Of a DNA stretch of 62,003 nucleotides, positions 49,183 through 61,951 are shown piece by piece. The stretch comes from a virus (Duplodnaviria; Caudoviricetes), in the IMG/VR virus record IMGVR_UViG_3300031707_000016, positions 1 through 62,003 of that record. One strand, 5' to 3'. Position 1 is the first letter of the stretch; every line of letters begins with the position of its first letter. Below the pieces are notes generated by a model. It saw only the letters and a program-made list of their open reading frames with translations, made no database searches and was not told the DNA's origin. Position numbers and translations under genes: made by a program.

Positions 49183-49507
49183 CAGGTTTGTTCTGTAGGA
49201 TGTTACGTAACTGTTCCACCCTCGGGCAAAGTTCAAAGATTTGATTATCTTTGTAGTATTTGCTTATGTGGTCGAGGTTAGGAACAAATTCCTTCTCCGC
49301 AATGGTTACTACGAAGGGAGAATTGCTGAACTGAAATACTTCCACGATGGGGAGTTTGTTTTCCACGGCGAACTTGATCGAAGAGACAACGTGTTCCATC
49401 ATGTCAACTCGAAATTTATTGACAAATGTCCGCATCTCGTCATTTGGAGATGGCAAGATGTATAACTCGTTCTCTTTCATGCTGGCCCTTTTATTCTTTC
49501 TGACCAT
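49124..49507 (-). CDS. hypothetical protein
   Basis: 127-aa ORF; late-promoter-like motif at 49512. Confidence 0.65.
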   Translation of the reverse strand: MVRKNKRASMKENELYILPSPNDEMRTFVNKFRVDMMEHVVSSIKFAVENKLPIVEVFQFSNSPFVVTIAEKEFVPNLDHISKYYKDNQIFELCPRVEQLRNILQNKPDEKENPDRSSSSSDESDAK

Positions 49508-49560
49508 GACTAATAAATATCAGTAAGCATTCCCATAAGGGCAAATATCGGGTCAATGAA

Positions 49561-49589
49561 AACAAAAAAAGCGCACCCGAAGGTGCGCT
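49561..49589 (-). terminator. intrinsic terminator
   Basis: Minus strand AGCGCACC-TTCG-GGTGCGCT followed by TTTTTTGTT. Confidence 0.85.
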
Positions 49590-49646
49590 CAAACGCATGT
49601 ACGTTTATGTGTGCAGTTCTAACGAACTGCCCCCGTCTCCTTGACG

Positions 49647-49913
49647 TTACCAAACCCGATGCTTCTTGGAATCGTATTGCACGATGCCTACGGGTTCTCC
49701 GTAGGAATGGTTTGTTGCGACACGTTTCCAAAAGTCCCGCTCCACGATTGCAGCAGGGTCTTTTGAATCGGAATACTCACGGTCTGACACACGGAATCCT
49801 TCACGCACAACAACGAACGTGACAGGTCGGTCCTTCTTCTCAGTAACTCCCGTTACCACTCGCTGAGTTGCGGGTGCGGCCACACTATTTTCCGGCTGGT
49901 TTGTTTTTACCAT
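49647..49913 (-). CDS. hypothetical protein
   Basis: 88-aa ORF in an overlapping run of three genes. Confidence 0.65.
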   Translation of the reverse strand: MVKTNQPENSVAAPATQRVVTGVTEKKDRPVTFVVVREGFRVSDREYSDSKDPAAIVERDFWKRVATNHSYGEPVGIVQYDSKKHRVW

Positions 49914-50184
49914 GTTTAGTCAGTTTTTTTGTTATGAATTCGACAATCCGATGGGCATCTTCTTGAGTTACGATGGTATGATCTGCCCACGGTCTGCCGG
50001 TTTTCATTACGTGTTCACACCACCGAATTCTTTCCTTCTTGGACATCTTTTCTCCCCCGGGATGATTTACCCACAGGGCGATATTGAATTGTCCATTCTC
50101 TCCATCAAAATCATCGAAGTTGATTTCTAGGACGGAGCATCCGCCACAGTCACACTTAACAAAGATTGACTCTGGTTTGCTCAT
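49885..50184 (-). CDS. hypothetical protein with CxCxxC motif
   Basis: 99-aa ORF; ATGA overlap with the upstream gene. Confidence 0.65.
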   Translation of the reverse strand: MSKPESIFVKCDCGGCSVLEINFDDFDGENGQFNIALWVNHPGGEKMSKKERIRWCEHVMKTGRPWADHTIVTQEDAHRIVEFITKKLTKHGKNKPAGK

Positions 50185-50450
50185 GAATTTTTAGACGCTG
50201 CCTTCACCGAAAAACGCAAGGCCACGAGAATTGCAACAACAAGATGCACCCAGAACCAAGCACATGGACCCATTGATTGGTAAATCCACACCATGATGAG
50301 AATGCGAGGAACGAAGATGGATGCGAAGAGGTCGGCGATGAAGGGAGTTGTATTGACTGGAAGGTTGCCAGTGACCCACCAAAAAAAGAGGACGATGCGG
50401 GGAACAAAAAGTGAGAGGAGAAGAAACCAAATACCAATTTCGTGTTGCAT
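50181..50450 (-). CDS. small multi-pass membrane protein
   Basis: Hydrophobic, repeated FVPRI motif; sigma70 promoter upstream. Confidence 0.65.
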   Translation of the reverse strand: MQHEIGIWFLLLSLFVPRIVLFFWWVTGNLPVNTTPFIADLFASIFVPRILIMVWIYQSMGPCAWFWVHLVVAILVALRFSVKAASKNS

Positions 50451-50492
50451 AATTTTTACTTTGTCGTGACCATTGTTCTATTCAATGGACAA

Positions 50493-50521
50493 ACATTAAC
50501 ACAGTACGAGGGAGTTGTCAA
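50493..50521 (-). promoter_or_regulatory. sigma70-type promoter
   Basis: Minus strand TTGACA-N17-TAATGT. Confidence 0.6.
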
Positions 50522-50557
50522 GCCCACTTTGATTCTTTTGGAGAATATTTATAATGT

Positions 50558-50722
50558 ATGCAAAGACAATTTGAACCACTGCACTGCCTGTTGCATTTTA
50601 GATGTTTGGTGAGGATGTTTAGGGAGAGAATGTTTGAGGGGAAACATAGGGGGAAGGTACGTCTGCACATATCCTTTTATTTCAAAGGAATGATACGAAG
50701 TATTGGGATCACTCCGAAGTGA
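50558..50722 (+). other. only plus-strand unit: late-promoter motif followed by a G-rich tract and a 54-codon ORF
   Basis: ATATTTATA at 50545-50553 in plus orientation; ORF MQRQFEPLH...GITPK; three ATGTTT repeats and G runs. Confidence 0.35.
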
Positions 50723-51076
50723 TTACTTTGGAGTCTGATTGAAATTACTGACTACGCTTGGAGAATTTGTTGGAATCTGAATGACGGATGATAGGTCTGT
50801 ACCCGTTCCAAGGGCATTAACTGCGAACGCACGGAACTGATAGACGTATCCCGGCTGAAGGGACTTAACAACCGTAGAATTGGTTGTGGAAGGAACGAAG
50901 GCGATGAACGTCCAATTGGTAACGGCTGGAAGTTTCTTATACTCAATACGATATCCACTAACCAGTTCTTGTGGTGGGTTCGGAGTCCAGCTAAACACGG
51001 CATCATACGACACAGTTTGTGCAATGGCGATTGCCAATGTCACAACCAGGAAAAATGGAGCGAGAATTTTCTTCAT
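50723..51076 (-). CDS. secreted fibronectin type III domain protein
   Basis: Signal peptide MKKILAPFFLVVTLAIAIA; SW.P...GYRIEY...LQPG..YQFR.FAVN..G. Confidence 0.82.
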   Translation of the reverse strand: MKKILAPFFLVVTLAIAIAQTVSYDAVFSWTPNPPQELVSGYRIEYKKLPAVTNWTFIAFVPSTTNSTVVKSLQPGYVYQFRAFAVNALGTGTDLSSVIQIPTNSPSVVSNFNQTPK

Positions 51077-51077
51077 A

Positions 51078-51440
51078 TCAATAAATAGTCTTTGTGACCT
51101 TCGTTATGACAAAATCTTTTACTGCGCTGGGCAGTCGGTTCGTATAAGGAAGAGAGTTGGTTTGGAGTTCATTGCCAAATTCTGTCTCCGTGTCATATAT
51201 GCCAATTGCGGTGGCGGTAAGGTATATGGTTCCTTCATTCGGTACAGAAATGGTTGCGTTAGTCACATATCCAAGGGTGGTTTGATTGGTATAGTTTCTA
51301 CTTGAAGGACCGTAGTAAATTTTATACCCAACTACTTCGTTGGTCGTCCCAACGTGGTTCCATCCAAGTTTCAAATCCGCAGCCAAAACGACTGCTGCTA
51401 TCATGGTAAGGCATGAACCTATTACGAATACTTTTTTCAT
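51078..51440 (-). CDS. secreted fibronectin type III domain protein
   Basis: Signal peptide; LGWN...VVGYKIYYG.SSRNY...Y..ATA. Confidence 0.78.
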   Translation of the reverse strand: MKKVFVIGSCLTMIAAVVLAADLKLGWNHVGTTNEVVGYKIYYGPSSRNYTNQTTLGYVTNATISVPNEGTIYLTATAIGIYDTETEFGNELQTNSLPYTNRLPSAVKDFVITKVTKTIY

Positions 51441-51445
51441 TAAAG

Positions 51446-51534
51446 TGGCGGATAGCTGAGTATTCGAAACCCATCCCGGTTAAGGGACAATCTGTTTTCG
51501 AGGCAGTTCCAGTACCCTGACTGGTTAACTATCC
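51446..51534 (-). tRNA. tRNA-Ser(CGA), 8/4 cloverleaf
   Basis: Acceptor GGATAGTT/AGCTATCC, anticodon loop CTCGAAA, long variable arm, T arm GGGT-TTCGAAT-ACTC, GCCA end. Confidence 0.88.
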
Positions 51535-51705
51535 AATTCTGCGGAAAAACGATTCTTGTTCACTCCTACGACGAGCAAGTTCATATGCTTCAAGTTGTGG
51601 AGTGACAGCGGCAATATACCGCTCACGAAACTCTTGATATTCCTTTTCCGTTTTGAACAACGGTTCCCATTTTACCCCCGGACATAACTCAAGTGCTTCA
51701 AACAT
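51529..51705 (-). CDS. small hypothetical protein between tRNAs
   Basis: MFEALELCPGVKWEP..., 58 aa. Confidence 0.55.
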   Translation of the reverse strand: MFEALELCPGVKWEPLFKTEKEYQEFRERYIAAVTPQLEAYELARRRSEQESFFRRIG

Positions 51706-51709
51706 AAAT

Positions 51710-51797
51710 TGGCGGAAGACTGAGATCCCGCCTCTCACTCCCGTAAAGGAGCCAACCGATTTCCAATCGGTGCCAAGTCTCACTCGGTTAATCTTCC
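51710..51797 (-). tRNA. tRNA-Ser(GGA), 8/4 cloverleaf with non-canonical D and T loops
   Basis: GGAAGATT/AGTCTTCC; ACCGA-TTGGAAA-TCGGT; variable arm; GAGA-GGCGGGA-TCTC; GCCA. Confidence 0.85.
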
Positions 51798-51800
51798 AAA

Positions 51801-51948
51801 TGACGAATCGTTGGATTCACGTCCAACTCATACTCCTCTTTAGGCTGGAGATAACCTATTATGGTCTTCGGGTGAACTTAACACCTTACTTATTGTCCAT
51901 AATTCCGATGCTAGTGTGAAACACGACATCGCTTAAATTGATTCGTCA
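51801..51948 (-). ncRNA. orphan multibranch structured RNA
   Basis: 9-bp terminal stem TGACGAATC/GATTCGTCA; internal stems CGATG/CATCG, ATTATGG/CCATAAT, GTTGGA/TCCAAC. Confidence 0.6.
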
Positions 51949-51955
51949 AAGAACT
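51946..51955 (-). promoter_or_regulatory. boxA-like antitermination element
   Basis: AGTTCTTTGA; identical copy at 54636-54645. Confidence 0.5.
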
Positions 51956-51960
51956 AAAAT

Positions 51961-52034
51961 TGGCTGGGGATGTTAGAATCGAACTAACACGTTGACTTTC
52001 AGAGAGTCCTATGCTACCACTACATCAATCCCCA
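51961..52034 (-). tRNA. tRNA-Gln(CTG)
   Basis: TGGGGAT/ATCCCCA acceptor, loop CTCTGAA, TTCGATT, GCCA. Confidence 0.92.
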
Positions 52035-52042
52035 ATACAAAT

Positions 52043-52116
52043 TGGTGGAGCCAAGGGGAATCGAACCCCTATCCCATCACTGCCAGCGATATGTCCTACC
52101 GTTGAACGATGGCCCC
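52043..52116 (-). tRNA. tRNA-Ala(GGC)
   Basis: G3:U70 pair, loop CTGGCAG, ACCA. Confidence 0.93.
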
Positions 52117-52208
52117 ATGTCAGCGGAACGTGCCCGCCGATTTGATTCACAACACTCTAAGGTGTTGGAGTTCCGGCTTCTTTATACACCCGCCTCCCGG
52201 TGTTAATT

Positions 52209-52282
52209 TGGTGGAGCTGAGGGGAATCGAACCCCTATCTACGCAGTGCAAGTGCATCGTCCTACCGTTGAACGACAGCCCC
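52209..52282 (-). tRNA. tRNA-Ala(TGC)
   Basis: G3:U70 pair, loop CTTGCAC, ACCA. Confidence 0.93.
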
Positions 52283-52291
52283 GAAAACAAC

Positions 52292-52380
52292 TAGATGCCG
52301 CCTTTATAGTCAGCGTGACTCCCCTTGCGGGAATTTAGGTTTGCTTATTAGGCAAATATTTGTGTTGCAGTGTGCATCTA
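52292..52380 (-). ncRNA. orphan structured RNA
   Basis: Terminal TAGATGC/GCATCTA; hairpins TTTGC/GCAAA, TTCCC-GCAA-GGGGA, GTCA/TGAC. Confidence 0.5.
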
Positions 52381-52387
52381 AAAAAAG

Positions 52388-52460
52388 TGGTTGCGGTCGC
52401 CAGAATTGAACTGGTCCCTGACCTTATGAGAGTCATGTGCAGCCATCACACTTCCCCGCA
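52388..52460 (-). tRNA. tRNA with CAT anticodon (Met-type) and atypical acceptor stem
   Basis: TGACT-CTCATAA-GGTCA; T loop TTCAATT; acceptor TGCGGGG/GACCGCA with 2 mismatches; ACCA. Confidence 0.75.
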
Positions 52461-52527
52461 ATCCGAAATTGTAAAAAGAACATACTATCTACTACATCCA
52501 TAAATATAGCAGTTGTTCTCAAAAACG

Positions 52528-52986
52528 TCAAGAAGAAACGACGTATTTCTTGTATTCGTCTTGAGAAAACTTCTCAATACCCCGAAGCGCACTTGAACTG
52601 ATGTGCCGAAACTTTGGGTCGCAATAGAATGCCAAAATTTTGATGCGGGGATACATTCCCCGCAGAAACGCCACGATGTTTTGCTCGTAATCCAAGTCCG
52701 CACCGTTACGCAATCCACGAACCAGCGTCACATTGTATTGTTCTTCTTGCTGCTTAATCATATCAATCAGCAAGGTGTCGTATGAAGTTGTTTTGACTCC
52801 GAGGGAATCCTCCAAAAACTTCACCGGCAAAGGATACCGAGAGGCGATTTGATTTGCCTTCTCTGGATTTACTCCCTTGGCGACCAACACATGGTCAAAC
52901 ACCTGTAATGCTTGATTCACGATGTCCAAATGACCTACATGAAAGGGGTCAAATGAACCGGCATACAATCCTAATGTATTTATCAT
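52528..52986 (-). CDS. coaD: phosphopantetheine adenylyltransferase
   Basis: YAGSFDPFHVGHLDIV, NPEK, LVRGLRNGADLDYE, ISSSALR. Confidence 0.88.
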   Translation of the reverse strand: MINTLGLYAGSFDPFHVGHLDIVNQALQVFDHVLVAKGVNPEKANQIASRYPLPVKFLEDSLGVKTTSYDTLLIDMIKQQEEQYNVTLVRGLRNGADLDYEQNIVAFLRGMYPRIKILAFYCDPKFRHISSSALRGIEKFSQDEYKKYVVSS

Positions 52987-52995
52987 CTTGAGAGG

Positions 52996-53024
52996 AGTCT
53001 AACAGAGAGGACTTGAAATGTCAA
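52996..53024 (-). promoter_or_regulatory. sigma70-type promoter for coaD
   Basis: Minus strand TTGACA-N17-TAGACT. Confidence 0.55.
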
Positions 53025-53033
53025 GGGGAAATC

Positions 53034-53438
53034 TTACCACCACAGATGACGGAACCACTTGGAAAACAAGTCCATACCTTCTTGGTATCGTTTCCAGTTT
53101 TCGGTCTGTACTTCCTCTGAGAGTCCATCATACTTATCCTCCTCATGGTTTAGTGACCAGTCAAAGGCGAAAATCATTTTGTCCAACATTGCTTCCCACT
53201 TATGTTCATCAATGTCTTCCCAACCACCGGGAAATCCGTTGTGGAGTTCACGGAAGCGAATGAGGCGAGGCAAGATGAACTGGCAGATAACCGAATCCAG
53301 TGACCACGTTTCTGCATCGGAGAACCCATTCTCCTTCAGCTGCTTAACGTGGCGAGCATATCTCTTGTCTGTCTTTTCAACATAAAGAGGCTTTTTGAGA
53401 GACCAATCACTCGTCAGTTTTCTACTCAACTTTTTCAT
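53034..53438 (-). CDS. phage hypothetical protein
   Basis: ETWSLD...PRL..F...G.P...W...LDKMIFAF...EG.DLF.KWF..LW pattern common in large phages. Confidence 0.75.
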   Translation of the reverse strand: MKKLSRKLTSDWSLKKPLYVEKTDKRYARHVKQLKENGFSDAETWSLDSVICQFILPRLIRFRELHNGFPGGWEDIDEHKWEAMLDKMIFAFDWSLNHEEDKYDGLSEEVQTENWKRYQEGMDLFSKWFRHLWW

Positions 53439-53884
53439 AGTTTATCCCATACGATGCGAAGAGACTCGTCGGCAGTCAACCCCTTGGTGTCAACGCAGAT
53501 GAAGTTCTCGGTGGGTTCTTCAAAATCATTCCGCTTAAATTCTTCACGGACATGAGCACCGGAATTTACCACGAGAATTTCACGGACGTTTTTGTTGCGG
53601 TTCTTAAATTCTTCCCTCACGGCACGGTCAGAGTTTACGGTGGAAACAATAACGGAGACGCCCTGATTATCAACATGTTCCACAAATGTCTGCAACTTGC
53701 GGGTATTACTGTCCCGATATTCTTTGGTGAAATGTTCTTGGTGATACGTGCCTCCGAAAATACGGCGCAAATCATCGCCATCAAGATGAATGGATGGCAT
53801 TCCGGTTGCATCAAACTGCGACTTGAGTTTCTTTGCCAATGTGGTCTTACCACAACCTGCTTGTCCGATGAACCAGTATATCAT
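53435..53884 (-). CDS. adenylylsulfate (APS) kinase-like P-loop kinase
   Basis: IYWFIGQAGCGKTT, HLDGDDLR, FEEP. Confidence 0.75.
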   Translation of the reverse strand: MIYWFIGQAGCGKTTLAKKLKSQFDATGMPSIHLDGDDLRRIFGGTYHQEHFTKEYRDSNTRKLQTFVEHVDNQGVSVIVSTVNSDRAVREEFKNRNKNVREILVVNSGAHVREEFKRNDFEEPTENFICVDTKGLTADESLRIVWDKL

Positions 53885-53897
53885 AACATTTTTAGAG

Positions 53898-53971
53898 TGG
53901 TGGAGCCGAGGGGAATCGAACCCCTATCTAGTCAGTGCGAGTGACCTATCCTACCGTTGAACGACGGCCCC
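53898..53971 (-). tRNA. tRNA-Ala(CGC)
   Basis: G3:U70 pair, loop CTCGCAC, ACCA. Confidence 0.93.
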
Positions 53972-53988
53972 GTGGAAACCGAAATTTG

Positions 53989-54099
53989 TATAGCGACTCG
54001 GGAGCCACACCGCTACCACAGATAGCTTTTCTGCGATTTCCCATTAGAGGAACGAATCCCCAATTATTGGGCAAAGAGCACGCCAGCTGGTGCGCTATA
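53989..54099 (-). ncRNA. orphan multibranch structured RNA
   Basis: Terminal TATAGCG/CGCTATA; GCACC/GGTGT; CCCAA/TTGGG; CGCAGA/TCTGTG. Confidence 0.5.
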
Positions 54100-54133
54100 A
54101 CGAAGCGTCCGGCGTTTATTTCATTTACGTAAC

Positions 54134-54202
54134 GTAGCGTTCGACGCTACAATGTGCGAACGACGTTTTCACAGAGAACCATTCAATGGTTCAATCTGTG
54201 AA
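54134..54202. other. two strong hairpins in a non-coding stretch
   Basis: gtagcgt-tcg-acgctac; ttcacaga-gaaccat-tca-atggttc-aa-tctgtgaa. Confidence 0.55.
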
Positions 54203-54210
54203 CGAAAGGG

Positions 54211-54296
54211 TGAGGTAGGTAGTGCGTTTCTGAGTTAACAGGGGGGTCTGCACCAAGACTGCCCTTACGGAATCCTCCTATCGGGCACCTACCTCA
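54211..54296 (-). ncRNA. orphan structured RNA directly 3' of the RNase P RNA
   Basis: Perfect 10-bp terminal stem TGAGGTAGGT/ACCTACCTCA; internal GCCC/GGGC and GTCT/AGAC. Confidence 0.55.
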
Positions 54297-54302
54297 TTAT
54301 GT

Positions 54303-54633
54303 ATTTGTCGCAGCCGTAGCCGAGGTTCTGTTCTATTCTTACATTTATCTCACATTGTTGATGGCGTGGTGAAACCAAGAACCGAACGGCCATATATCAC
54401 CTTTAGGCACTAAATGGTCCATCAACTCCGTGCCCACGATTAACCGTGGGTGCCCCAACCCGAGCGTTACAACGATAAGCACTAATCTTTGCTCTGTTTG
54501 GGTTACTCCTAATTTGTGGTATTAACGTGGATTTTGATGTCCACTCCCAATCATCTGCTTTGGAGGCTCGAACTTCCTCTACATGCTCTTTCAATCTGTA
54601 ATAGCACGCAGCGTAAGATCGCTTACGACAAAA
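54303..54633 (-). ncRNA. rnpB: RNase P RNA-like gene with reduced specificity domain
   Basis: CR-I GAGGAAGTTCGAGCCTCC, CR-IV AGATAAAT, CR-V AACAGAACCTCGGCTAC; P1 TTTGTCG/CGACAAA, P2 CTTAC/GTAAG, P4 CGAG/CTCG. Confidence 0.85.
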
Positions 54634-54635
54634 TC

Positions 54636-54645
54636 TCAAAGAACT
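54636..54645 (-). promoter_or_regulatory. boxA-like antitermination element
   Basis: AGTTCTTTGA immediately 5' of the rnpB-like gene. Confidence 0.5.
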
Positions 54646-54654
54646 GACAATACC

Positions 54655-55032
54655 TTACACTGTCGGCGGCGAATTGTCAACAACTTTTGTTGGAGGAACA
54701 ATTTCCTTGGTAGGCATCTGCCCAGCCGCTAGTTGTGCCATCTGAAACTCGTAGTTCAACTGCGTTTCGTTGTCCTTGGACTCGGCAAAGCGTTGAACTG
54801 GTTTCATCAAACTGAATGCCACGAGAATATAGACCCATTCCTTTGGTGGGATAACCAATGTCCCGGTTGAAATGGTGAGGTATGTTGCCAACGCCATAAA
54901 CGTGGCAATGACGATAAATCCTACGATGCGTGAATATGAAAATGACGGAGGCTCCGTGGCATCTAGGAACATTGACCATAACGCTGGTGCCTTTGGTTTG
55001 GCGGGCGTAAGACTTTTGATTTCTTTGCTCAT
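54655..55032 (-). CDS. small membrane protein, holin-like topology possible
   Basis: MSKEIKS start after late motif at 55037; two hydrophobic segments. Confidence 0.6.
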   Translation of the reverse strand: MSKEIKSLTPAKPKAPALWSMFLDATEPPSFSYSRIVGFIVIATFMALATYLTISTGTLVIPPKEWVYILVAFSLMKPVQRFAESKDNETQLNYEFQMAQLAAGQMPTKEIVPPTKVVDNSPPTV

Positions 55033-55066
55033 ATGGTATAAATATACCAAGTATGGGCAAATGACA

Positions 55067-55411
55067 CTAATCTCCCCGCTTAAAGCGGTCAATATCGTCT
55101 AAGATCTTCTCACGGTCATCCCGATATTGTTTGACGATGAATGTAAACCCCACTTTATCAACATCCTCCACCATTTCGTCACAAAAACGAATGATGTCTT
55201 CGTCCGAGGGTTTCCAATCAAATTCCTCACAGACTGCGGCAATGTTCTTGCCTTTCTGACTCATGTTGAATGCAGAGGACACCATACCCAATTCCTCAAG
55301 TTTGTCGAGGTAGTTGATGATAACCATCACAGAAATCATCTGCGGGTTTTCCAACCATCCTTTCGCCTTGAGACGTTCAACAATAGCGGTAAACTTTTCT
55401 TCGTTCGTCAT
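55067..55411 (-). CDS. hypothetical protein
   Basis: MTNEEKF start downstream of a TTGACT...TACACT promoter. Confidence 0.65.
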   Translation of the reverse strand: MTNEEKFTAIVERLKAKGWLENPQMISVMVIINYLDKLEELGMVSSAFNMSQKGKNIAAVCEEFDWKPSDEDIIRFCDEMVEDVDKVGFTFIVKQYRDDREKILDDIDRFKRGD

Positions 55412-55449
55412 TGTGCCACAGTGTATCACGCTCAAGGCGGAAGTCAAGG

Positions 55450-55788
55450 TTAAAAATACAACCAATCGGCGTCACGTTTGAAAATAGGAACTTCAATATC
55501 GTAATCGCCGTTGCGAATTTTCTGCATTGCGACACGTTCCTGTGCCTTGCGCTCGGCATTGAGATGGCGGCGAAAAGTGGCAGAGGCATGGTGCCAGTGT
55601 TTGTGGGAACCACTATCAATGAAACGAGCACGCTTGGTGATAGTTTCAAAGTTGTGGGCGATTCGTTCTTCGGTAGTCCAGTACCAAGAACCATCGGTGT
55701 TTTCGTAAGGGTTATCCAAACGACGGATGCGATTCCAGCATTTCTGACGGAATGCACGATTGCGAATATACTTGTTTTCAGTTCTCAT
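55450..55788 (-). CDS. basic hypothetical protein
   Basis: 112-aa Arg-rich ORF; long hairpin at 55792-55831 just upstream. Confidence 0.6.
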   Translation of the reverse strand: MRTENKYIRNRAFRQKCWNRIRRLDNPYENTDGSWYWTTEERIAHNFETITKRARFIDSGSHKHWHHASATFRRHLNAERKAQERVAMQKIRNGDYDIEVPIFKRDADWLYF

Positions 55789-55876
55789 TTTCTCTATGTG
55801 AACTTACGCTTTATGCGTAAGTCACGTAGAGTGCAAAATGAGTTGGTTGGTGAGGATAATGTTCATGGTAAATGGG

Positions 55877-55951
55877 TCGGAATGGTGGGATTTGAACCCA
55901 CGACCCCCTGCGCCCAAGGCAGGTGCGCTAGCCAAGCTGCGCTACATTCCG
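55877..55951 (-). tRNA. tRNA-Pro(TGG)
   Basis: CGGAATG/CATTCCG, loop CTTGGGC, TTCAAAT; followed by CCCA rather than an exact CCA. Confidence 0.93.
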
Positions 55952-55964
55952 TTGTTGATAAATA

Positions 55965-56252
55965 TCAAAGTCTGACGCCTTGTGCCAAAGCATTTTTCAC
56001 TTCTTCTTCGGATGGTGCCGCTTCGGGTTTCGGGGATGTTTCACGGGCAATCGTTTCTTGGGCGATTTTTTTGAAATCTTCGGGGAGCAACTCACCAAGA
56101 GATTTAAGAACCTCTGAAGCGAATTTAGCATCGGTTTTGATGCGCTCTTTGACCATTTCTTTGGCGAGCTCGTTTCTTTTTTGAGCAACTTTTTGGGCGA
56201 TCCATACTCTTTTTTCATCAAGTTTTCGTCCTGCGGATTTTGATTTGCTCAT
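55965..56252 (-). CDS. hypothetical protein
   Basis: 95-aa Lys/Glu-rich ORF between tRNAs. Confidence 0.65.
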   Translation of the reverse strand: MSKSKSAGRKLDEKRVWIAQKVAQKRNELAKEMVKERIKTDAKFASEVLKSLGELLPEDFKKIAQETIARETSPKPEAAPSEEEVKNALAQGVRL

Positions 56253-56265
56253 AACTTATTTCAAA

Positions 56266-56339
56266 TGGTGGTCAGTAGTGGAATCGAACCACTCTCTATA
56301 CCGTGTCGAGGTATTATTCTGCCGATAAACTAACTGACC
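56266..56339 (-). tRNA. tRNA-Val(GAC) with C33
   Basis: GGTCAGT/ACTGACC; ATACC-TCGACAC-GGTAT; TTCGATT; ACCA. Confidence 0.88.
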
Positions 56340-56341
56340 GT

Positions 56342-56415
56342 TCTGCTGCCACTCGTATCGCAACGAGAATGTACTTAACTTCGATCGGCACTTGCCCGGG
56401 CTGCCTAACAGCAAA
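56342..56415 (-). ncRNA. tRNA-like orphan RNA without an anticodon arm
   Basis: TTTGCTGTTA/TGGCAGCAGA stem; GGCA/TGCC arm; T-arm-like CTCGT-TGCGAT-ACGAG. Confidence 0.4.
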
Positions 56416-56752
56416 CTTGCATGAAAGATGGGATGAATCCTACATCTTTCAAAATTCGTTTCTTCGCCTGCTCCATTGTGCCTTTGAATACCCAATCAGG
56501 ATAACCCTGACAATAAGTAAACAATTCCTTCGGCATCAGAAGAAATCCTACATCCTCCGACCACAGTTTCATCTGTAGGTTCACCGACATTTTTCCTTCT
56601 TGAACACGTTTGACTATCTCGTATTCCTTGGTCGGCACTTTGTATCCATTTTCTAAACAGAGAAAACTAAACTCACCATCTTCTCCATTTACATCGTAAG
56701 GTGGCAAGTCGTGACTTCCACACTCAAATATCTTTGGGAAATTGATATACAA
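56405..56752 (-). CDS. hypothetical protein, start uncertain
   Basis: 115-aa ORF with TTG start. Confidence 0.5.
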   Translation of the reverse strand: MYINFPKIFECGSHDLPPYDVNGEDGEFSFLCLENGYKVPTKEYEIVKRVQEGKMSVNLQMKLWSEDVGFLLMPKELFTYCQGYPDWVFKGTMEQAKKRILKDVGFIPSFMQVCC

Positions 56753-56820
56753 TTCCCAGTTCTGAACAAATTCTACTCGCTTGACTGACCGGCGTTTGGC
56801 ATTGACATAGCATCCTCCTG

Positions 56821-57000
56821 TTACTTGTTTCTACAAAAAATTATGTTGAACATAACCACGAAGATAAGTATCAAAGGCCACAACAAAACGTTGAATGACC
56901 AGAACGTGGTTCTCTCCCGCCAATTGCCAAGCGGACCAATGTCTATCCACAACAAAAGTCCCCACACGAATCCCAAAATCAGATAGAGTGTGATTAACAT
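56821..57000 (-). CDS. small two-TM membrane protein, 59 aa (absent from ORF track)
   Basis: MLITLYLILGFVWGLLLW...LLWPLILIFVVMFNIIFCRNK; TTGACA promoter near 57029-57034. Confidence 0.6.
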   Translation of the reverse strand: MLITLYLILGFVWGLLLWIDIGPLGNWRERTTFWSFNVLLWPLILIFVVMFNIIFCRNK

Positions 57001-57043
57001 GACATACTTTATACTATCGTCTCTTGGTTGTCAAGAAACAAAT

Positions 57044-57117
57044 TGGTAGGCGATATTGGAGTTGAACCAATGCCTGTTCCGTGTGAGAGAACTATTCTAC
57101 CGTTATAATAATCGCCC
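57044..57117 (-). tRNA. tRNA-Val(CAC)
   Basis: GTTCT-CTCACAC-GGAAC; TTCAACT; ACCA. Confidence 0.88.
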
Positions 57118-57118
57118 A

Positions 57119-57310
57119 TTATCTTCCACCGTTGTTCCACCAAGACTTGGCGGCACGCATGGAAGGAAATTCACCCGTGCAGTGGTCAGGTGCGTAATAC
57201 AACCACCATCTACGTTTGCTTCGGAACAATCTAACTTCTTTGTTGAAAGGTTTGATTTCTCCCTCGACGATTTCCACTCGGCAACCATTCCATATTCTTG
57301 CTTTGGACAT
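57119..57310 (-). CDS. small hypothetical protein
   Basis: MSKARIWNG..., 63 aa. Confidence 0.55.
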   Translation of the reverse strand: MSKARIWNGCRVEIVEGEIKPFNKEVRLFRSKRRWWLYYAPDHCTGEFPSMRAAKSWWNNGGR

Positions 57311-57311
57311 A

Positions 57312-57647
57312 TCAGGAGTGGTTGTAGTGAAATTTGAAGTGGAACTCAATCCCCGCCGCATTCAAGTGATGAAGAATTGCTCCACCATCCTTAAACAAAT
57401 GGTTAATCATCTCCTCTGCCTTCTTGCTATCAGATTCATAGGCAACAACGCCAGCACCGAAATAGTTGCGGGCAGATTGTTTGTCGGGACCAGTTCCATA
57501 GAAACGGTCGAGATGTTTTTCAATTGCTTCTGGTTTGGTATCGGCATAGCAGAAGTTGATTTCGTAAGTGAAACCTTCGCCCGTGGCGAAGTATTCCATG
57601 TAGGTGAGATACCCACGGTATTCCGTCGTAACTTTTTTCTTTGCCAT
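57312..57647 (-). CDS. hypothetical protein
   Basis: MAKKKVTTEYRG..., 111 aa, starts just after tRNA-Ser(GCT). Confidence 0.65.
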   Translation of the reverse strand: MAKKKVTTEYRGYLTYMEYFATGEGFTYEINFCYADTKPEAIEKHLDRFYGTGPDKQSARNYFGAGVVAYESDSKKAEEMINHLFKDGGAILHHLNAAGIEFHFKFHYNHS

Positions 57648-57651
57648 AAAT

Positions 57652-57739
57652 TGGCGGAAGGCAGAGATCCCGCCTCTCACCCCCTTTCAGGGGCCATCGG
57701 TTTAGCAAACCGTGACAAGCCTCGCCTGCTTTACCTTCC
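57652..57739 (-). tRNA. tRNA-Ser(GCT), 8/4 cloverleaf with non-canonical D and T loops
   Basis: GGAAGGTA/TGCCTTCC; CGGT-TTGCTAA-ACCG; variable arm; GAGA-GGCGGGA-TCTC; GCCA. Confidence 0.85.
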
Positions 57740-57829
57740 GTAGGTCAAGTATTTTCCTTGGAAAACCTTTGTAAAAAGTCACATTGGAATTTCGCCACAT
57801 TTTCCTGCCTGTGGATTTAACCACTCAGC

Positions 57830-58111
57830 TCATGGTCGGTTGTCAATGATTACCCTAGATTCTTCCCACTCCTGAAATTTCTCAGGACTTTGGGCACAAA
57901 AAACATCCAAACATCCATGACACTCCATGTCATCGGGAGGAACATCACCTTTGTATTTGGGATGCCACTCACACTTTGTTATGTTTTCCTTCCGCCATTT
58001 TACAGTGGCGGCAAATTGACGCTCTACTTGCTCAAGGGTTGGAGGAGGCAACTTTTTCAGTGCTTCCATTTGGTCTTTCAACCATTGCGGTGCAGATATA
58101 ACGTCTTTCAC
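57830..58111 (-). CDS. hypothetical protein with CxxH and CxxC motifs
   Basis: 93-aa ORF, GTG start. Confidence 0.6.
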   Translation of the reverse strand: MKDVISAPQWLKDQMEALKKLPPPTLEQVERQFAATVKWRKENITKCEWHPKYKGDVPPDDMECHGCLDVFCAQSPEKFQEWEESRVIIDNRP

Positions 58112-58116
58112 AAAAT

Positions 58117-58190
58117 TGGTACGGAGTAGAGGTTCTGCCCCTCTGATCTCTCGGTGTAAGCGAGATTTGATACTATTTCAACAACTCCGC
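58117..58190 (-). tRNA. tRNA-Val(TAC) with non-canonical D and T loops
   Basis: TCTCG-CTTACAC-CGAGA; D loop AATAGTA; T arm AGAGG-GGCAGAA-CCTCT; ACCA. Confidence 0.85.
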
Positions 58191-58195
58191 ATAAA

Positions 58196-58286
58196 TGGCG
58201 GAAGGCTGAGGTCACGCTCCCCACACCCGTCTTAGGGGTGCATACGCATTTCAAGTGCGTTCCGAGTCTCACCCGGTTAACCTTCC
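58196..58286 (-). tRNA. tRNA-Ser(TGA), 8/4 cloverleaf with non-canonical D and T loops
   Basis: GGAAGGTT/AGCCTTCC; ACGCA-CTTGAAA-TGCGT; variable arm; GGGG-AGCGTGA-CCTC; GCCA. Confidence 0.85.
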
Positions 58287-58335
58287 ATCTGTCAATAAAT
58301 ATGACAGAAAATCTCAAAAATGTCAACTACTAAAT

Positions 58336-58409
58336 TGGTTGGTCTTGAAGGATTCGAACCTTCACAAAAAGCTTCAAAGGCTTCTGTGCTACCATTACAC
58401 CAAAGACCA
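58336..58409 (-). tRNA. tRNA-Gln(TTG)
   Basis: TGGTCTT/AAGACCA; loop CTTTGAA; TTCGAAT; ACCA. Confidence 0.92.
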
Positions 58410-58414
58410 ATGAA

Positions 58415-58726
58415 TTGTCAATAGTATGCTATTACGCCAAAGGGACGGGTTCTGCCATTGCAGTAATCAGCTGAATTCTGCTGACCAATCATGGTTCCAG
58501 ACAACTTGCCAATGTCAATTCACTGGTTCTTACAGTCACGATGTAATGTTTGCCTCCGAGCAACTCAGTTGAATACGTCAACCTTTCACGCCGCTATCAA
58601 ACTTTCACGGCGATATGATGTCACATGGAGACATGTTCCCACTTATTATAGGCACCAGACTTTTCAGTTGAAAAGTCTGATGAACTTTTCAGTTTGGCTG
58701 CCTCTAAGCCCACCTTCTACTGACAA
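58415..58726 (-). ncRNA. structured RNA mimicking 23S rRNA H43/H44 (L11-binding GTPase-associated centre) with a ~250-nt insert
   Basis: 5' AGAAGGTGGGCTTAGAGGCAGCCA, 3' GCGTAATAGC, closed by the 10-bp stem TTGTCAGTAG/CTATTGACAA. Confidence 0.75.
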
Positions 58727-58731
58727 ATTGT

Positions 58732-58807
58732 TGGTGGCCCTACTCGGACTCGAACCGAGAACTAATCTTTAGGAAAGACCTATGATGTCCAATTTCACCA
58801 TAGAGCC
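58732..58807 (-). tRNA. tRNA-Arg(CCT)
   Basis: Loop TTCCTAA; A20; TTCGAGT; ACCA. Confidence 0.92.
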
Positions 58808-58815
58808 ACTGTTGA

Positions 58816-59376
58816 TTAACGTCCCGCACGATACCCACGGCTGATTTCAGCGTCGGTAACGACTTCCTTCTTAGTCTCCACCACGGAGAACTTGCCAAGC
58901 GCACGGTCAGCGATTTTCTGATACGCATTGACCATCGTATCATAGAGGAAGTTGAAAAAGTCACCCGTGAGTCCCCACGCCAATGACCAAGGCCACCAAG
59001 CAATCCATCCCGTAAGACGTGCCTTGTGACCAGAGACGGAAATCTCGCTCTTCAATTCGGAGCGTTGTGAAGGCGTCAGTGTATTGCCATATTTTTCAGC
59101 ATATCGTGCCGCAGACTTTTGTACAAGACGATACCATTTGAAAACTGACCAAACGACGCCGACTAGGGCGTATCCACCGACAATGAGGGCGAGTGTTTGC
59201 CATCCCACTGCTATCAGCGGTTTCCAAAACACAATTCCTAGCACAATTGCTGTTATGCTTGGAGTGGCGTAATGGTCATTTTCAATAGAAGCGATGAAGA
59301 TGACGCTGGCGATGAGTGTGAGAGCCCAGAACCAAAAGGTTCCGAATGCGAATGTTGCGAGTATAGTTTCAATCAT
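58816..59376 (-). CDS. multi-pass membrane protein
   Basis: MIETILATF start after a TTGACA...TAAGAT promoter; several TM helices; WIAWWPWS. Confidence 0.7.
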   Translation of the reverse strand: MIETILATFAFGTFWFWALTLIASVIFIASIENDHYATPSITAIVLGIVFWKPLIAVGWQTLALIVGGYALVGVVWSVFKWYRLVQKSAARYAEKYGNTLTPSQRSELKSEISVSGHKARLTGWIAWWPWSLAWGLTGDFFNFLYDTMVNAYQKIADRALGKFSVVETKKEVVTDAEISRGYRAGR

Positions 59377-59422
59377 AGGTGTGCATCTTATCACATCTCC
59401 ATGATTTGTCAAGCTAAGAAAT

Positions 59423-59498
59423 TGGTGCCGCAACCGAGACTCGAACTCGGAACTTCGCTTTAGAAGAGCACTATGATGTCCAATTTCACCATTGCGGC
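59423..59498 (-). tRNA. tRNA-Arg(TCT)
   Basis: Loop CTTCTAA; same D arm as Arg(CCT); ACCA. Confidence 0.92.
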
Positions 59499-59514
59499 AT
59501 AGACTTTGCTTTTG

Positions 59515-59673
59515 TCAACGGGGTACAAAGTCCATACATCCCCGTATTACTTTGTTTCCAATAACAGGTACAGTTCCAACAATTCCAAAACAATCACTAT
59601 TGCGGTCGGCATAGCCTCCTACTAGGATTATCACTTCCTTGTTGCTGTTAGTAGCAGGTAATATACTGCTCAT
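59515..59673 (-). CDS. small hypothetical protein
   Basis: MSSILPATNSNKEV..., 52 aa between tRNAs. Confidence 0.4.
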   Translation of the reverse strand: MSSILPATNSNKEVIILVGGYADRNSDCFGIVGTVPVIGNKVIRGCMDFVPR

Positions 59674-59676
59674 ATT

Positions 59677-59750
59677 TGGTATCCCATAGGAGAATCGAAC
59701 TCCTGCTATCACCTTGAAAGGGTGTCGTCCTACCACTAGACGAATGGGAC
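59677..59750 (-). tRNA. tRNA-Glu(TTC)
   Basis: GTCCCAT/ATGGGAT; loop CTTTCAA; ACCA. Confidence 0.93.
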
Positions 59751-59757
59751 ATAAAAT

Positions 59758-59967
59758 TTATAGTGTCGCTGATGGCTTCCATTCGGAACGTGTAAAATAG
59801 ATACTACTATCTACAAATGGATTCCCATTGACAATCGGGCAATACTCTCCATTTATTCCTTGCCATTCCAAGACTTCAAACACGGTTCCTCTTGGAATAC
59901 GTGCATAATTATCGAGTTCATTGAACTGATAATCTTCTAACAATTCAATTTTTTTAGGATCGTTCAT
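59758..59967 (-). CDS. small hypothetical protein
   Basis: MNDPKKIELL..., ATGA overlap with the iscU stop. Confidence 0.6.
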   Translation of the reverse strand: MNDPKKIELLEDYQFNELDNYARIPRGTVFEVLEWQGINGEYCPIVNGNPFVDSSIYFTRSEWKPSATL

Positions 59968-60356
59968 TTTGACAATTGTCTCTTCTTGTAATCTTCCAAA
60001 GCAGCTTTCAGTGCTTCCTCGGCAAGAACCGAGCAATGGATTTTTACTGGCGGCAGACCGCCCAAAGCATCAACAACTTCTTGATTGGAAAATGTTTCCA
60101 TTTCCTCAATGGTGCGCCCCTTAATCAATTCCGTTGCCATTGAACTGGCGGCAATCGCCGACCCACATCCAAAAGTTTTGAACCGAGCATCTTGAATTCT
60201 CCCATCTTTTACCTTGATGGTTACTTTCATGATGTCACCACAAGCAGCTGCACCCACTTCTCCAATACCATCGGCATCCTTGATGTCACCCATGTTACGT
60301 GGATGCAAGAAATGGTCCATTACGGTATCATTATACAATGTGTAAGTTTCGCTCAT
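59964..60356 (-). CDS. iscU: Fe-S cluster scaffold, IscU/NifU N-terminal family
   Basis: DHFLHPRNMG, GAAACGD, FKTFGCGSAIAASS, LPPVKIHCSVLAEEA (three Cys and the LPPVK chaperone motif). Confidence 0.92.
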   Translation of the reverse strand: MSETYTLYNDTVMDHFLHPRNMGDIKDADGIGEVGAAACGDIMKVTIKVKDGRIQDARFKTFGCGSAIAASSMATELIKGRTIEEMETFSNQEVVDALGGLPPVKIHCSVLAEEALKAALEDYKKRQLSK

Positions 60357-60363
60357 ACTAAAT

Positions 60364-60449
60364 TGGTGCTGGTGGAGGGACTTGAACCCACAATGCCTTT
60401 CGGCTCTACATTCTGAGTGTAGCGTGTTTGCCAATTACACCACACCAGC
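60364..60449 (-). tRNA. tRNA-Leu(CAG)
   Basis: CTACA-CTCAGAA-TGTAG; variable arm GCC-GAAA-GGC; ACCA. Confidence 0.93.
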
Positions 60450-60452
60450 ATA

Positions 60453-60561
60453 GACAAGTTCAGCGTCACCCTTGGTTTCCTGCCACAGCAATTATTAGTC
60501 GCTGTTTGGGATTGCCCACACCTAGCCAAGAGATACGGCAATTCTCTGCGCCTTACTTGTC
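60453..60561 (-). ncRNA. orphan multibranch structured RNA
   Basis: GACAAGT/ACTTGTC; CTCTTGG/CCAAGGG; TGGG-CAAT-CCCA; ACAGCGA/TTGCTGT. Confidence 0.55.
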
Positions 60562-60564
60562 AAA

Positions 60565-60732
60565 TTATTTCTGCAAAACTCGCAGCACGAGTTTCGCCTT
60601 CTTCAACTTCTGCTCGGTCTTCTCAACCTCTTCGGGAGAAGAATTTTTGCGGAAGTTTGCACTTCGCAAACGAGTCTCAAGAAACTTGATGTAATCTTGC
60701 TCGTGTTGCAATCGCTTTGCGTCTTTGCTCAT
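60565..60732 (-). CDS. small basic helical protein, 55 aa (absent from ORF track)
   Basis: MSKDAKRLQHEQDYIKFLETRLRSANF...LRVLQK. Confidence 0.6.
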   Translation of the reverse strand: MSKDAKRLQHEQDYIKFLETRLRSANFRKNSSPEEVEKTEQKLKKAKLVLRVLQK

Positions 60733-60736
60733 AAAG

Positions 60737-60821
60737 TGGTAGCACCGAACGGATTCGAACCGATAAAGGATGACAAGTTCTAAGCTTGTTGCTTGTGCCA
60801 GCTTCGCTTATCCACGGTGCC
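60737..60821 (-). tRNA. atypical tRNA-Leu(TAG)
   Basis: ACAAG-CTTAGAA-CTTGT; TTCGAAT; ACCA; no variable-arm hairpin; insertion after the acceptor stem. Confidence 0.75.
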
Positions 60822-60828
60822 ACAAATT

Positions 60829-60912
60829 TGGTGCGGGTGGAGGGACTCGAACCCCCACGGATTTCTCCGGCAGATTTTGAGTCTGCTGCGGCTACCATTA
60901 CGCCACACCCGC
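60829..60912 (-). tRNA. tRNA-Leu(CAA)
   Basis: GCAGA-CTCAAAA-TCTGC; variable arm; ACCA. Confidence 0.93.
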
Positions 60913-60915
60913 ATA

Positions 60916-61061
60916 GACAGTAAGCGGTTTCCTACTTGTATTTCGTACTCCCTCGTCTATTGCTCCCATTTGTGGATGGTGTCATTTTCGTTCCACAGTG
61001 GTTACATACAACCGAACAAGCAAGACACGCCCCTTCGGTTTATTGACTTATCCATACTGTC
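60916..61061 (-). ncRNA. orphan structured RNA
   Basis: GACAGTA/TACTGTC terminal stem; AACCGAA/TTCGGTT; TGTGGA/TCCACA. Confidence 0.5.
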
Positions 61062-61070
61062 AAATTGTTA

Positions 61071-61235
61071 TGGGCTGAGTGCGTTTTCACGCAAGCCTTC
61101 ATGAAGGCGTCAACCTACCTAAGTCTTAAGCCTCGTAGGAGCGTCAAATCCATGTGTCCCTGAACGCTGTCTCACTATCGTAAAATGCTTCGATGGCACA
61201 TATTGTCGTGAGACTTTTTCCGACTTCTCAGCCCA
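61071..61235 (-). ncRNA. orphan multibranch structured RNA starting at a consensus promoter
   Basis: TGGGCTGAG/CTCAGCCCA; GTCTCAC/GTGAGAC; AGCGT/ACGCT; CCTAC/GTAGG; TGCGT-GAAA-ACGCA. Confidence 0.62.
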
Positions 61236-61242
61236 CGGGTGG

Positions 61243-61270
61243 ATTATACCACACATCAGGTGGATGTCAA
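61243..61270 (-). promoter_or_regulatory. consensus sigma70 promoter
   Basis: TTGACA-N16-TATAAT with TGn extension; late motif adjacent at 61273. Confidence 0.75.
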
Positions 61271-61298
61271 CCTATAAATACTGTGCCAAATTTGAAAG

Positions 61299-61374
<76 letters not shown>

Positions 61375-61576
61375 AAAATACCGCACTACTCTGGATGGGG
61401 AGAGCGTGTGCGGGAGTATTTTCTCCTTACCGGAGGTAATATATTACCCATCTGTTATCTCTCTATGGAGTGGAGCCTTGAGAGCGTGTCAAACTTTATC
61501 CACCATATCAACATGATTCACATGCTTTGTTGTCAGCCCCACAGTGTATAGACAACCTTCACCCGTGGGGAATTCA

Positions 61577-61801
61577 TTACTTGGCATCGGGAAGCGATGA
61601 CTCCAAGTCAAACTCAAACTGACCTGACGCCTTTGGAGCGAATGGTCTCAACATTTTTGAAAGTTCGTTCGGGAAGTCGAAGTAAAAACAGAGGGAATCT
61701 GTGCCAACATAAACGTTGGGACCGAGTTGCCGTTTAACCGCCTTGTCAAACGCCCGCATGTTCTCAAAGTCTTTTTCTTCAAATGTCAAGTGCAGTTTCA
61801 T
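61577..61801 (-). CDS. hypothetical protein
   Basis: 74-aa ORF downstream of a sigma70-type promoter. Confidence 0.6.
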   Translation of the reverse strand: MKLHLTFEEKDFENMRAFDKAVKRQLGPNVYVGTDSLCFYFDFPNELSKMLRPFAPKASGQFEFDLESSLPDAK

Positions 61802-61923
61802 AAATCAAGTCGCTTTTCTAACCTCCATGAGCCAGATATTCCACCGAGCGGCGAGTCCAAGGGGATTGTACTCTTGTGCCTCTGGTTCAGCGTCCTTTAG
61901 GAGGCTTTGTAATCATTGACTGT

Positions 61924-61951
61924 ATCATACACCATCTTGACGGAATGTCAA
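61924..61951 (-). promoter_or_regulatory. sigma70-type promoter
   Basis: Minus strand TTGACA-N16-TATGAT. Confidence 0.6.

Follow-up and report, generated by a model that had tools for sequence, protein, structure and literature searches.

The virus record IMGVR_UViG_3300031707_000016 (Duplodnaviria; Caudoviricetes), whose entire 62,003 bp form the window analyzed here, carries four tRNA-Ser genes, with anticodons CGA, GGA, GCT and TGA, whose cloverleaf has an acceptor stem of eight base pairs and a T stem of four (8/4). This fold is strongly supported: it is kept by compensatory change in more than 100 viral relatives, and the serine anticodons of the window genes are kept as such across the same class. 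Judging from sequence and its conservation, the four very probably function as serine tRNA genes in a large phage and follow the (8/4) tRNA-Ser scaffold of Mukai et al. (2017; PMC5389517). To the known scaffold the window adds a clean four-anticodon set, the combination of an 8/4 fold with A18/G55 at the elbow of the molecule, a large covariation set, and a demonstration that tRNA finders at default settings miss the genes.

Anatomy of the four serine tRNA genes

An earlier note on this DNA, made by inspection of its letters, had reported four tRNA-Ser elements between positions 51,446 and 58,286. All four are present, on the minus strand, and the coordinates that the note gave as starts are the 3' CCA ends (Table 1). 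Read on the minus strand, each gene begins with GGA and ends with G73 and an encoded CCA. The acceptor stem consists of eight consecutive pairs in every gene, the seventh being a T.G wobble and the eighth T-A in Ser(CGA), Ser(GGA) and Ser(TGA) and A-T in Ser(GCT). An AA linker then leads into a D arm of 15 to 16 nt with five to six pairs. The D loop, at 3 to 6 nt, is not strictly a tetraloop, and the arm has the long stem and small loop typical of selenocysteine tRNA (tRNA-Sec). The anticodon loop of each gene has 7 nt and contains U33, a variable arm of 5 to 6 bp adjoins the T stem, and the T stem of 4 bp carries a 7-nt loop, which brings the acceptor/T branch to 12 bp.

This is the anatomy that the note had drawn, down to the retained G73 and long variable arm; only its D stem of about 5 bp needs widening, to five or six pairs. 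The note had also observed that a conventional cloverleaf with seven acceptor and five T-stem pairs (7/5) does not suit Ser(GCT), and we agree: drawn that way, the gene has a T.T mismatch and loses U8, the base at position 8 being A. Under standard wobble pairing, this set of four anticodons reads all six serine codons, as the note had claimed.

Unconstrained folding with RNAfold returned the exact 8/4 cloverleaf, as both the minimum free energy structure and the centroid, for Ser(GGA) (z = -2.28), Ser(GCT) (z = -2.35) and Ser(TGA) (z = -2.30); Ser(CGA) is discussed below. Taken alone, such predicted thermodynamics are suggestive of the 8/4 fold but short of decisive.

Covariation supports the 8/4 fold

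A covariance model, R1, was trained on the window's four Ser genes with their 8/4 structure. R1 matches full-length homologues outside its training set, on other viral contigs, with E-values of about 1e-14 to 1e-20. Two pattern scans of viral contigs had found the sister contigs L001/G001 and L002/G002. A broader viral scan used a pattern anchored in the acceptor stem that left position 8 and its partner free, and gave at least 129 matches (126 distinct). That a single acceptor pattern matched at least 120 loci indicates that the 8/4 tRNA-Ser class is common in viral metagenomes. A tRNA filter on these matches, consisting of the seven acceptor pairs and the anticodon arm, was passed by 80. R1 was searched against the window and 88 of 127 loci, omitting 5 duplicates of G001/G002 and 34 loci whose match was not tRNA-like; the best 150 (149 distinct) of its 175 matches at E <= 1e-4 make up alignment A3.

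On A3, the 8/4 structure pairs 95.3% of cells, compared with 67.0% in column-shuffled alignments, and none of 500 shuffles reached the observed values; controls with slid partners gave 42 to 46%. The four T-stem pairs are formed in 99.5% of cells, all of them covarying, and the variable-arm helix in 94.8%. The eighth acceptor pair, whose covariation the note had seen among the four window genes, is UA in 48 of the 149 homologues, GC in 42, AU in 40 and CG in 11, with 8 other or unpaired.

Counting at fixed offsets from the gene ends, which is independent of the alignment, gives a Watson-Crick eighth pair in 138 of 149 genes (TA 48, AT 40, GC 40, CG 10). In those 138 genes, the partner required by a 7/5 fold is a mismatch in 77, a wobble in 11 and Watson-Crick in 50. 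The sample obtained by pattern only can be read in the same way. Among its 80 tRNA-like matches, the eighth pair is Watson-Crick in 64 and a wobble in 1, and 15 are plain 7/5 tRNA-Ser; across the 64, the 7/5 partner is Watson-Crick in 25, a wobble in 6 and a mismatch in 33. Every one of the four Watson-Crick types is represented at the eighth pair, and these counts amount to a large covariation test, independent of the model, that leaves no reasonable doubt about the 8/4 fold of the class. Double changes are also visible between orthologues. The eighth pair of Ser(GCT) is A-T in the window and T-A in the G002 orthologue (L002:889-976), while that of Ser(CGA) is T-A in the window and A-T in G002 (L005:1671-1760).

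These data bear directly on the possibility that the genes adopt the usual 7/5 cloverleaf, its linker being 3 nt long (U8, A9 and an extra A) and the eighth "pair" coincidental. For three window genes out of four, and for 50 of 138 members of the class, the last base of the variable arm, almost always U, could indeed pair past the T stem, and ARAGORN run with relaxed settings draws Ser(TGA) as 7/5. However, this U is near-invariant, without covariation, and it closes the variable arm as a G.U pair in 131 of 149 genes, while the fifth T-stem pair for which the 7/5 alternative needs it is paired in 60 of 148 and unpaired in 88. The eighth acceptor pair, by comparison, is formed in 141 of 149. 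The 7/5 drawing fails for the window's Ser(GCT) and for the Ser(CGA) of G002, and the 15 true 7/5 tRNA-Ser genes in the sample of 80 look different from the class, with position 8 unpaired and a fifth T pair that is Watson-Crick and covaries. Because the fifth T pair is mostly unpaired and the near-invariant U pairs in the variable arm, we reject the 7/5 reading for the class and regard it as very improbable for the window genes.

Serine identity is conserved across the class

The anticodons of 138 class members are GCT in 39, CGA in 34, TGA in 31 and GGA in 27, so that 131 have a serine anticodon; the other 7 are different or could not be read. The nearly equal counts of the four serine anticodons point to selection on decoding. 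G73 is present in 141 of 149 genes and the AA linker in 129 of 138. The first three acceptor pairs are G-C in 144, G-C in 149 and A-U in 143 of 149 genes; G1-C72, G2-C71 and A3-U70 are what we take to be identity elements for the seryl-tRNA synthetase (SerRS) of Escherichia coli. In the D stem, pairs 1 to 4 are formed in 115 to 121 of 123 class members; pair 5, which shows four Watson-Crick types, is formed in 91 of 122, and pair 6 in 61 of 121.

Complete four-anticodon 8/4 sets occur at 6 of 73 loci (the window, L106, L113, L095, L024 and L032), a count that is a lower bound, the loci being short. The sister genome G002 carries the same four Ser isoacceptors.

Standard tRNA finders miss the genes

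The note had expected low scores or misses from the usual programs, and misses were what we obtained. ARAGORN with default settings reported 14 tRNAs and one "tmRNA" in the window, with no tRNA-Ser and none of the four genes among them. Rfam at its gathering score found the same 14 tRNAs and nothing at the four Ser places. A search of positions 49,000 to 62,003 with the Rfam models for tRNA (RF00005) and tRNA-Sec (RF01852), at E <= 10, gave no match at these places either. When relaxed (-ps80), ARAGORN called Ser(CGA), Ser(GGA) and Ser(TGA) but never Ser(GCT), and it drew the first as 8/4, the second out of register and the third as 7/5. ARAGORN found neither of the two Ser genes in L001 and neither of the two in L002. 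A default annotation would list the phage as being without serine tRNA, despite its full set, and studies of phage codon usage or tRNA complement that use default finders would inherit a bias concerning serine.

We also applied a cloverleaf scanner and an acceptor-stem scan to positions 49,000 to 62,003, and neither revealed an 8/4 tRNA-His or tRNA-Tyr or any other firm irregular tRNA. The cloverleaf scanner rejected Ser(CGA) because of two mismatches in its anticodon stem.

A matched change at the elbow

Ser(CGA) has the canonical T loop TTCGAAT and a D loop with GG. The other three Ser genes share the D loop GAG, and their T loops are GGCGGGA in Ser(GGA) and Ser(GCT) and AGCGTGA in Ser(TGA). 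In these three, and in the neighboring tRNA-Val(TAC) gene, A18/G55 replaces G18/U55, and positions 54:58 are G:G or A:U (A54:U58 in Ser(TGA), G54:G58 in Val(TAC)). Val(TAC), which has a 7/5 cloverleaf, was missed by ARAGORN defaults and by Rfam; its orthologue at L002:317-390 has a canonical D loop (AATGGTA) and a canonical T loop (TTCAATT).

Across the class, 114 members passed the filters for an elbow test and 112 were counted. The combination of D-loop position 18 and T-loop position 55 is G/U in 79, A/G in 24, A/U in 4, and C or U with U in 5. G18 is never found with G55, and all 24 members with G55 have A18; the association is significant by Fisher's test (p = 4e-20, kinship ignored). G19-C56 is retained in 108 of the 112. 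Positions 54:58 are U:A in 51, A:U in 26, A:A in 17, G:G in 15 and other combinations in 3. The pattern suggests that the L-shaped corner is preserved despite the A18/G55 swap, and since G19-C56 is kept, the L shape itself is probably retained. A change in the D loop that is matched by one in the T loop argues that these odd-looking genes are working tRNAs and not pseudogenes. No paper on A18/G55 T-loop pairing turned up in the literature that we searched. With a paired position 8 and this elbow, the three Ser genes would provide good natural test substrates for SerRS, elongation factor EF-Tu, tRNA modification enzymes and tRNA-targeting nucleases.

Relation to known tRNAs

The note had stated that tRNA-Ser of the 8/4 kind is known from phages, and such tRNAs are indeed described by Mukai et al. 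(PMC5389517). By sequence, the window's Ser genes belong to that group, as every feature that we compared (acceptor, T stem, variable arm, G73, anticodon and D arm) agrees. The published (8/4) tRNA-Ser likewise combines an 8-bp acceptor and a 4-bp T stem with a tRNA-Sec-like D stem, a long variable arm, G73 and serine anticodons, and it likewise lies in tRNA clusters of uncultivated phages, where standard finders miss or mis-score it. There are differences from the text of that paper. All four serine anticodons stand in one array here, and three window genes have a non-canonical T loop in which G55 is matched by A18, although the paper's supplement may include complete sets or T loops with G55 already. 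The paper describes a D tetraloop, whereas the D loop here has 3 to 5 nt, and it reports (8/4) tRNA-Ser together with (8/4) tRNA-His in alphaproteobacterial phages, whereas the window is without the latter. A pyrimidine at position 20 is the paper's criterion for also naming an 8/4 tRNA-Ser an allo-tRNA.

Bacterial tRNA-Sec (8/5) resembles the window genes in its 8-bp acceptor with a paired position 8, long D stem, long variable arm, G73 and charging by SerRS. It differs in having a 13-bp branch and a UCA anticodon, where the window genes have 12 bp and sense serine anticodons. We rejected a tRNA-Sec identity for these reasons and for lack of an RF01852 match at E <= 10. Canonical class II tRNA-Ser (7/5) shares the anticodons, the long variable arm, G73 and the GGA-type start, and presumably the synthetase and the codons; unlike the window genes, it has an unpaired U8, a D stem of 3 to 4 bp with a large GG loop, and a T stem of 5 bp. 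This identity was also rejected, since position 8 is paired, the fifth T pair is unsupported and RF00005 gives no match at E <= 10.

Occurrence in bacterial tRNA arrays

The dense accessory tRNA sets of the bacterial L-arrays (Santamaria-Gomez et al. 2021; PMC8421152) are similar to the window's array, which differs in being on a phage and in having open reading frames (ORFs) interspersed among the tRNA genes. In that census, no isoacceptor family is rarer in arrays than tRNA-Ser (0.36). The main text of the paper contains neither "allo-tRNA" nor "Mukai", and 8/4 tRNAs are unmentioned in it.

We scanned contigs of bacterial genomes with the acceptor pattern. It matched at least 120 loci, nearly all by chance, and filtering left at least five real 8/4 Ser genes, all with anticodon GCT, a sample too small and too skewed to bear on host range. 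In the five genomes with 8/4 Ser, the genes are grouped in twos or threes. In three of these they lie inside dense arrays, with 17 to 20 tRNA genes per 3 kb, where ARAGORN calls no Ser; the other two have one looser cluster and one tandem trio, one member of which ARAGORN calls. The dense arrays (L250, L251 and L249) are on contigs of metagenome-assembled genomes labeled Actinomycetota, Polyangiaceae and Trebonia, and the 8/4 model finds two to three Ser genes in or beside each. The low tRNA-Ser figure in the array census (PMC8421152) may partly reflect such finder misses.

The acceptor pattern also brought out two tRNA-Sec-like genes with a TCA anticodon, at the bacterial genome loci L199 and L210; they have the acceptor GGAAG...CTTCCGCCA in common with the phage 8/4 Ser genes.

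Proposed function

We propose that the serine tRNAs are transcribed within the minus-strand array of tRNA genes and ORFs and would be excised by RNase P and the 3' processing enzymes of the host; with CCA encoded, its addition would be unnecessary. Host SerRS would then charge them by way of the long variable arm, G73, G1-C72, G2-C71 and A3-U70. Delivery by EF-Tu is proposed because the acceptor and T stem still total 12 bp. In decoding, GGA would read UCY, UGA would read UCA and UCG, CGA would read UCG, and GCU would read AGY. According to published work, SerRS reads the discriminator along with the long variable arm and tolerates 8/5, 9/4, 8/4 and even 9/3 tRNAs, and 8/4 and 9/3 tRNAs are active in E. 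coli translation (PMC5389517).

A demand for serine is apparent in the window. In its 26 minus-strand ORFs of at least 200 aa (14,437 aa in total), serine is the commonest residue, at 9.61%, and the six serine codons are in even use, each taking 13 to 20% of the total for serine. An 805-aa ORF in the tail region (Table 1) has 18.5% serine. The note's suggestion that the serine tRNAs supply serine-rich virion proteins fits these data. Several neighboring structural or tail-region ORFs have 12 to 14% serine.

A number of points count against the view that these are working 8/4 serine tRNAs. No RNA run is among the sequencing runs listed as containing the stretch, so function is read from conservation. 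The search pattern and R1 were both derived from the window genes, so one lineage was sampled, and A3 was fitted to the 8/4 model, although the fixed-offset and pattern-only counts are independent of A3. U54 and U55 are absent from three of the four Ser T loops, which makes modification to T54 and pseudouridine-55 impossible there. Finally, Ser(CGA) gives no cloverleaf in unconstrained RNAfold (z = -1.04), and its anticodon stem has standard pairs at three of five positions, with A27.A43 and C31.A39 mismatched; we attribute the failure to fold unaided to these mismatches. Position 27-43 is, however, unpaired in 90 of 149 genes of A3, so that A27.A43, present in both Ser(GCT) and Ser(CGA), is a trait of the class and not decay. 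C31.A39 also occurs in 6 of 34 CGA and 6 of 31 TGA class members, and the G002 orthologue of Ser(CGA) (L005:1671-1760) has exactly the same anticodon arm, with both mismatches.

Alternative roles

The note had further proposed that the unusual scaffold lets the tRNAs escape tRNA-targeting defenses. Put more fully, the 8/4 scaffold and the A18/G55 elbow would be kept as a poor substrate for tRNA-targeting nucleases or modification-dependent toxins, of the host or of a rival, so that phage translation continues while host tRNA-Ser is destroyed; this would add to ordinary decoding. There are documented phage tRNAs that withstand anticodon nucleases, PARIS, retron effectors and Schlafen nucleases or buffer against them (PMC10264068, PMC11464382, PMC11555353, PMC13056530), and the paired position 8, together with the missing U54/U55 in three of the four Ser genes, might render the tRNAs invisible to enzymes that read those features. 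The 8/4 Ser type is also located in accessory sets (phage arrays, and dense bacterial arrays in three of the five genomes examined), a weak pointer that the scaffold is part of mobile accessory sets. Yet neither the window data nor the literature searched tied the 8/4 shape to such escape, and in that literature we found no defense system that discriminates by the acceptor/T-stem split or targets bacterial tRNA-Ser. The anticodon loops are ordinary, Ser(CGA) retains a canonical elbow, and one bacterial Schlafen cleaves both host and phage tRNAs in their anticodon arm (PMC13056530). We therefore consider this added role unlikely, and evasion by the 8/4 shape as such is speculation.

A wider version of the idea, which we put forward as a distinctly doubtful one, is that the 8/4 Ser scaffold with its A18/G55 elbow may form a horizontally traveling lineage of accessory tRNAs, in phage and bacterial arrays, kept because it is invisible to enzymes, such as defense nucleases, that read the canonical core (unpaired U8, T54/pseudouridine-55, 7/5). 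Systematic undercounting of serine in published phage and array tRNA censuses would be a side effect.

The genes could also serve mainly as RNA-processing punctuation or as decoys, that is, as tRNA-like markers of mRNA ends and not as decoders. Minus-strand ORFs starting at 51440, 51705, 57646 and 58111 begin 4 to 6 nt past the CCA of Ser(CGA), Ser(GGA), Ser(GCT) and Val(TAC), respectively, and ATTT directly follows 10 of the 19 firm tRNAs. Excision of the tRNAs would leave almost leaderless mRNAs at such ORFs. Punctuation, however, needs no conserved anticodon, G73, CCA or SerRS identity pairs, whereas a serine anticodon is kept in 131 of 138 class members, the four in near-equal numbers, and complete sets recur; 8/4 and 9/3 tRNAs are, moreover, published as translating in E. 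coli (PMC5389517). Both roles can coexist, but punctuation as the main one seems improbable.

That the genes encode tRNAs of the selenocysteine type, or tRNAs for recoding (suppressors of missense or nonsense codons), as many allo-tRNAs are, is barely credible: the 8-bp acceptor, long D stem and long variable arm are shared with tRNA-Sec and allo-tRNAs, but each anticodon is one of the four standard for serine and not UCA, CUA or missense, the branch has 12 bp and not 13, the Rfam tRNA-Sec model gives no match at E <= 10, and the window's large ORFs are open under translation table 11.

The tRNA array and the phage

The four Ser genes are part of a tRNA array (Table 1) that probably runs off the end of the contig. 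The array also holds full isoacceptor sets for Ala (GGC, TGC, CGC), Val (GAC, CAC, TAC) and Gln (TTG, CTG), as well as both AGR Arg tRNAs. With the Ala, Val and Gln sets equally full, completeness is a property of the array and is not special to serine, which the note had singled out. Two weak tRNA candidates are listed in the table. The "tmRNA" called by ARAGORN was rejected as most likely an artefact over two tRNA-Ala genes; it scores 33 to 38 bits with the Rfam tmRNA model, against a cut-off of 47.

Table 1. Features of the window, with positions in the 62,003-bp record (nt counts of Ser genes include CCA; R1, bit score with the covariance model)
Feature	Position	Strand	Remarks
805-aa ORF, tail region	45975-48392	-	
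tRNA array interspersed with small ORFs	51446..61374	-	14 canonical tRNAs, 4 Ser, Val(TAC) and two weak candidates
tRNA-Ser(CGA)	51446..51534	-	89 nt; R1 88.4 bits
tRNA-Ser(GGA)	51710..51797	-	88 nt; R1 100.7 bits
ARAGORN "tmRNA" (rejected)	52043-52418	-	
Weak CAT tRNA candidate	52388-52460	-	Two acceptor-stem mismatches; relaxed ARAGORN only
tRNA-Ser(GCT)	57652..57739	-	88 nt; R1 96.0 bits
tRNA-Val(TAC)	58117..58190	-	7/5 cloverleaf, 5 nt downstream of Ser(TGA); D loop AATAGTA, T loop GGCAGAA
tRNA-Ser(TGA)	58196..58286	-	91 nt; R1 96.1 bits
Weak TAG (Leu) candidate	60737-60821	-	85 nt; T loop TTCGAAT; over-long D region; Rfam tRNA 22.4 bits, cut-off 29 bits

Genes for a portal protein, large terminase, SbcCD-like nuclease, baseplate and tail fibre are found on the minus strand of the window. 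The sister contigs are rated 14% (L001/G001, 48 kb) and 8% (L002/G002, 32 kb) complete, and these low values suggest a phage of several hundred kb. A search of INPHARED with positions 51,300 to 58,500 (blastn, distant mode) returned 67 records; the matches listed all amount to about 1%, at tRNA-Pro, and no cultured relative is among them. The window and L002 have the gene order Ser-TGA, Val-TAC, Ser-GCT, Val-CAC, Pro-TGG, Ala-CGC in common. Four DNA runs were compared, and contigs of two further sediment runs hold identical DNA, with zero differing letters. The contigs from the sediment runs break at tRNA genes.

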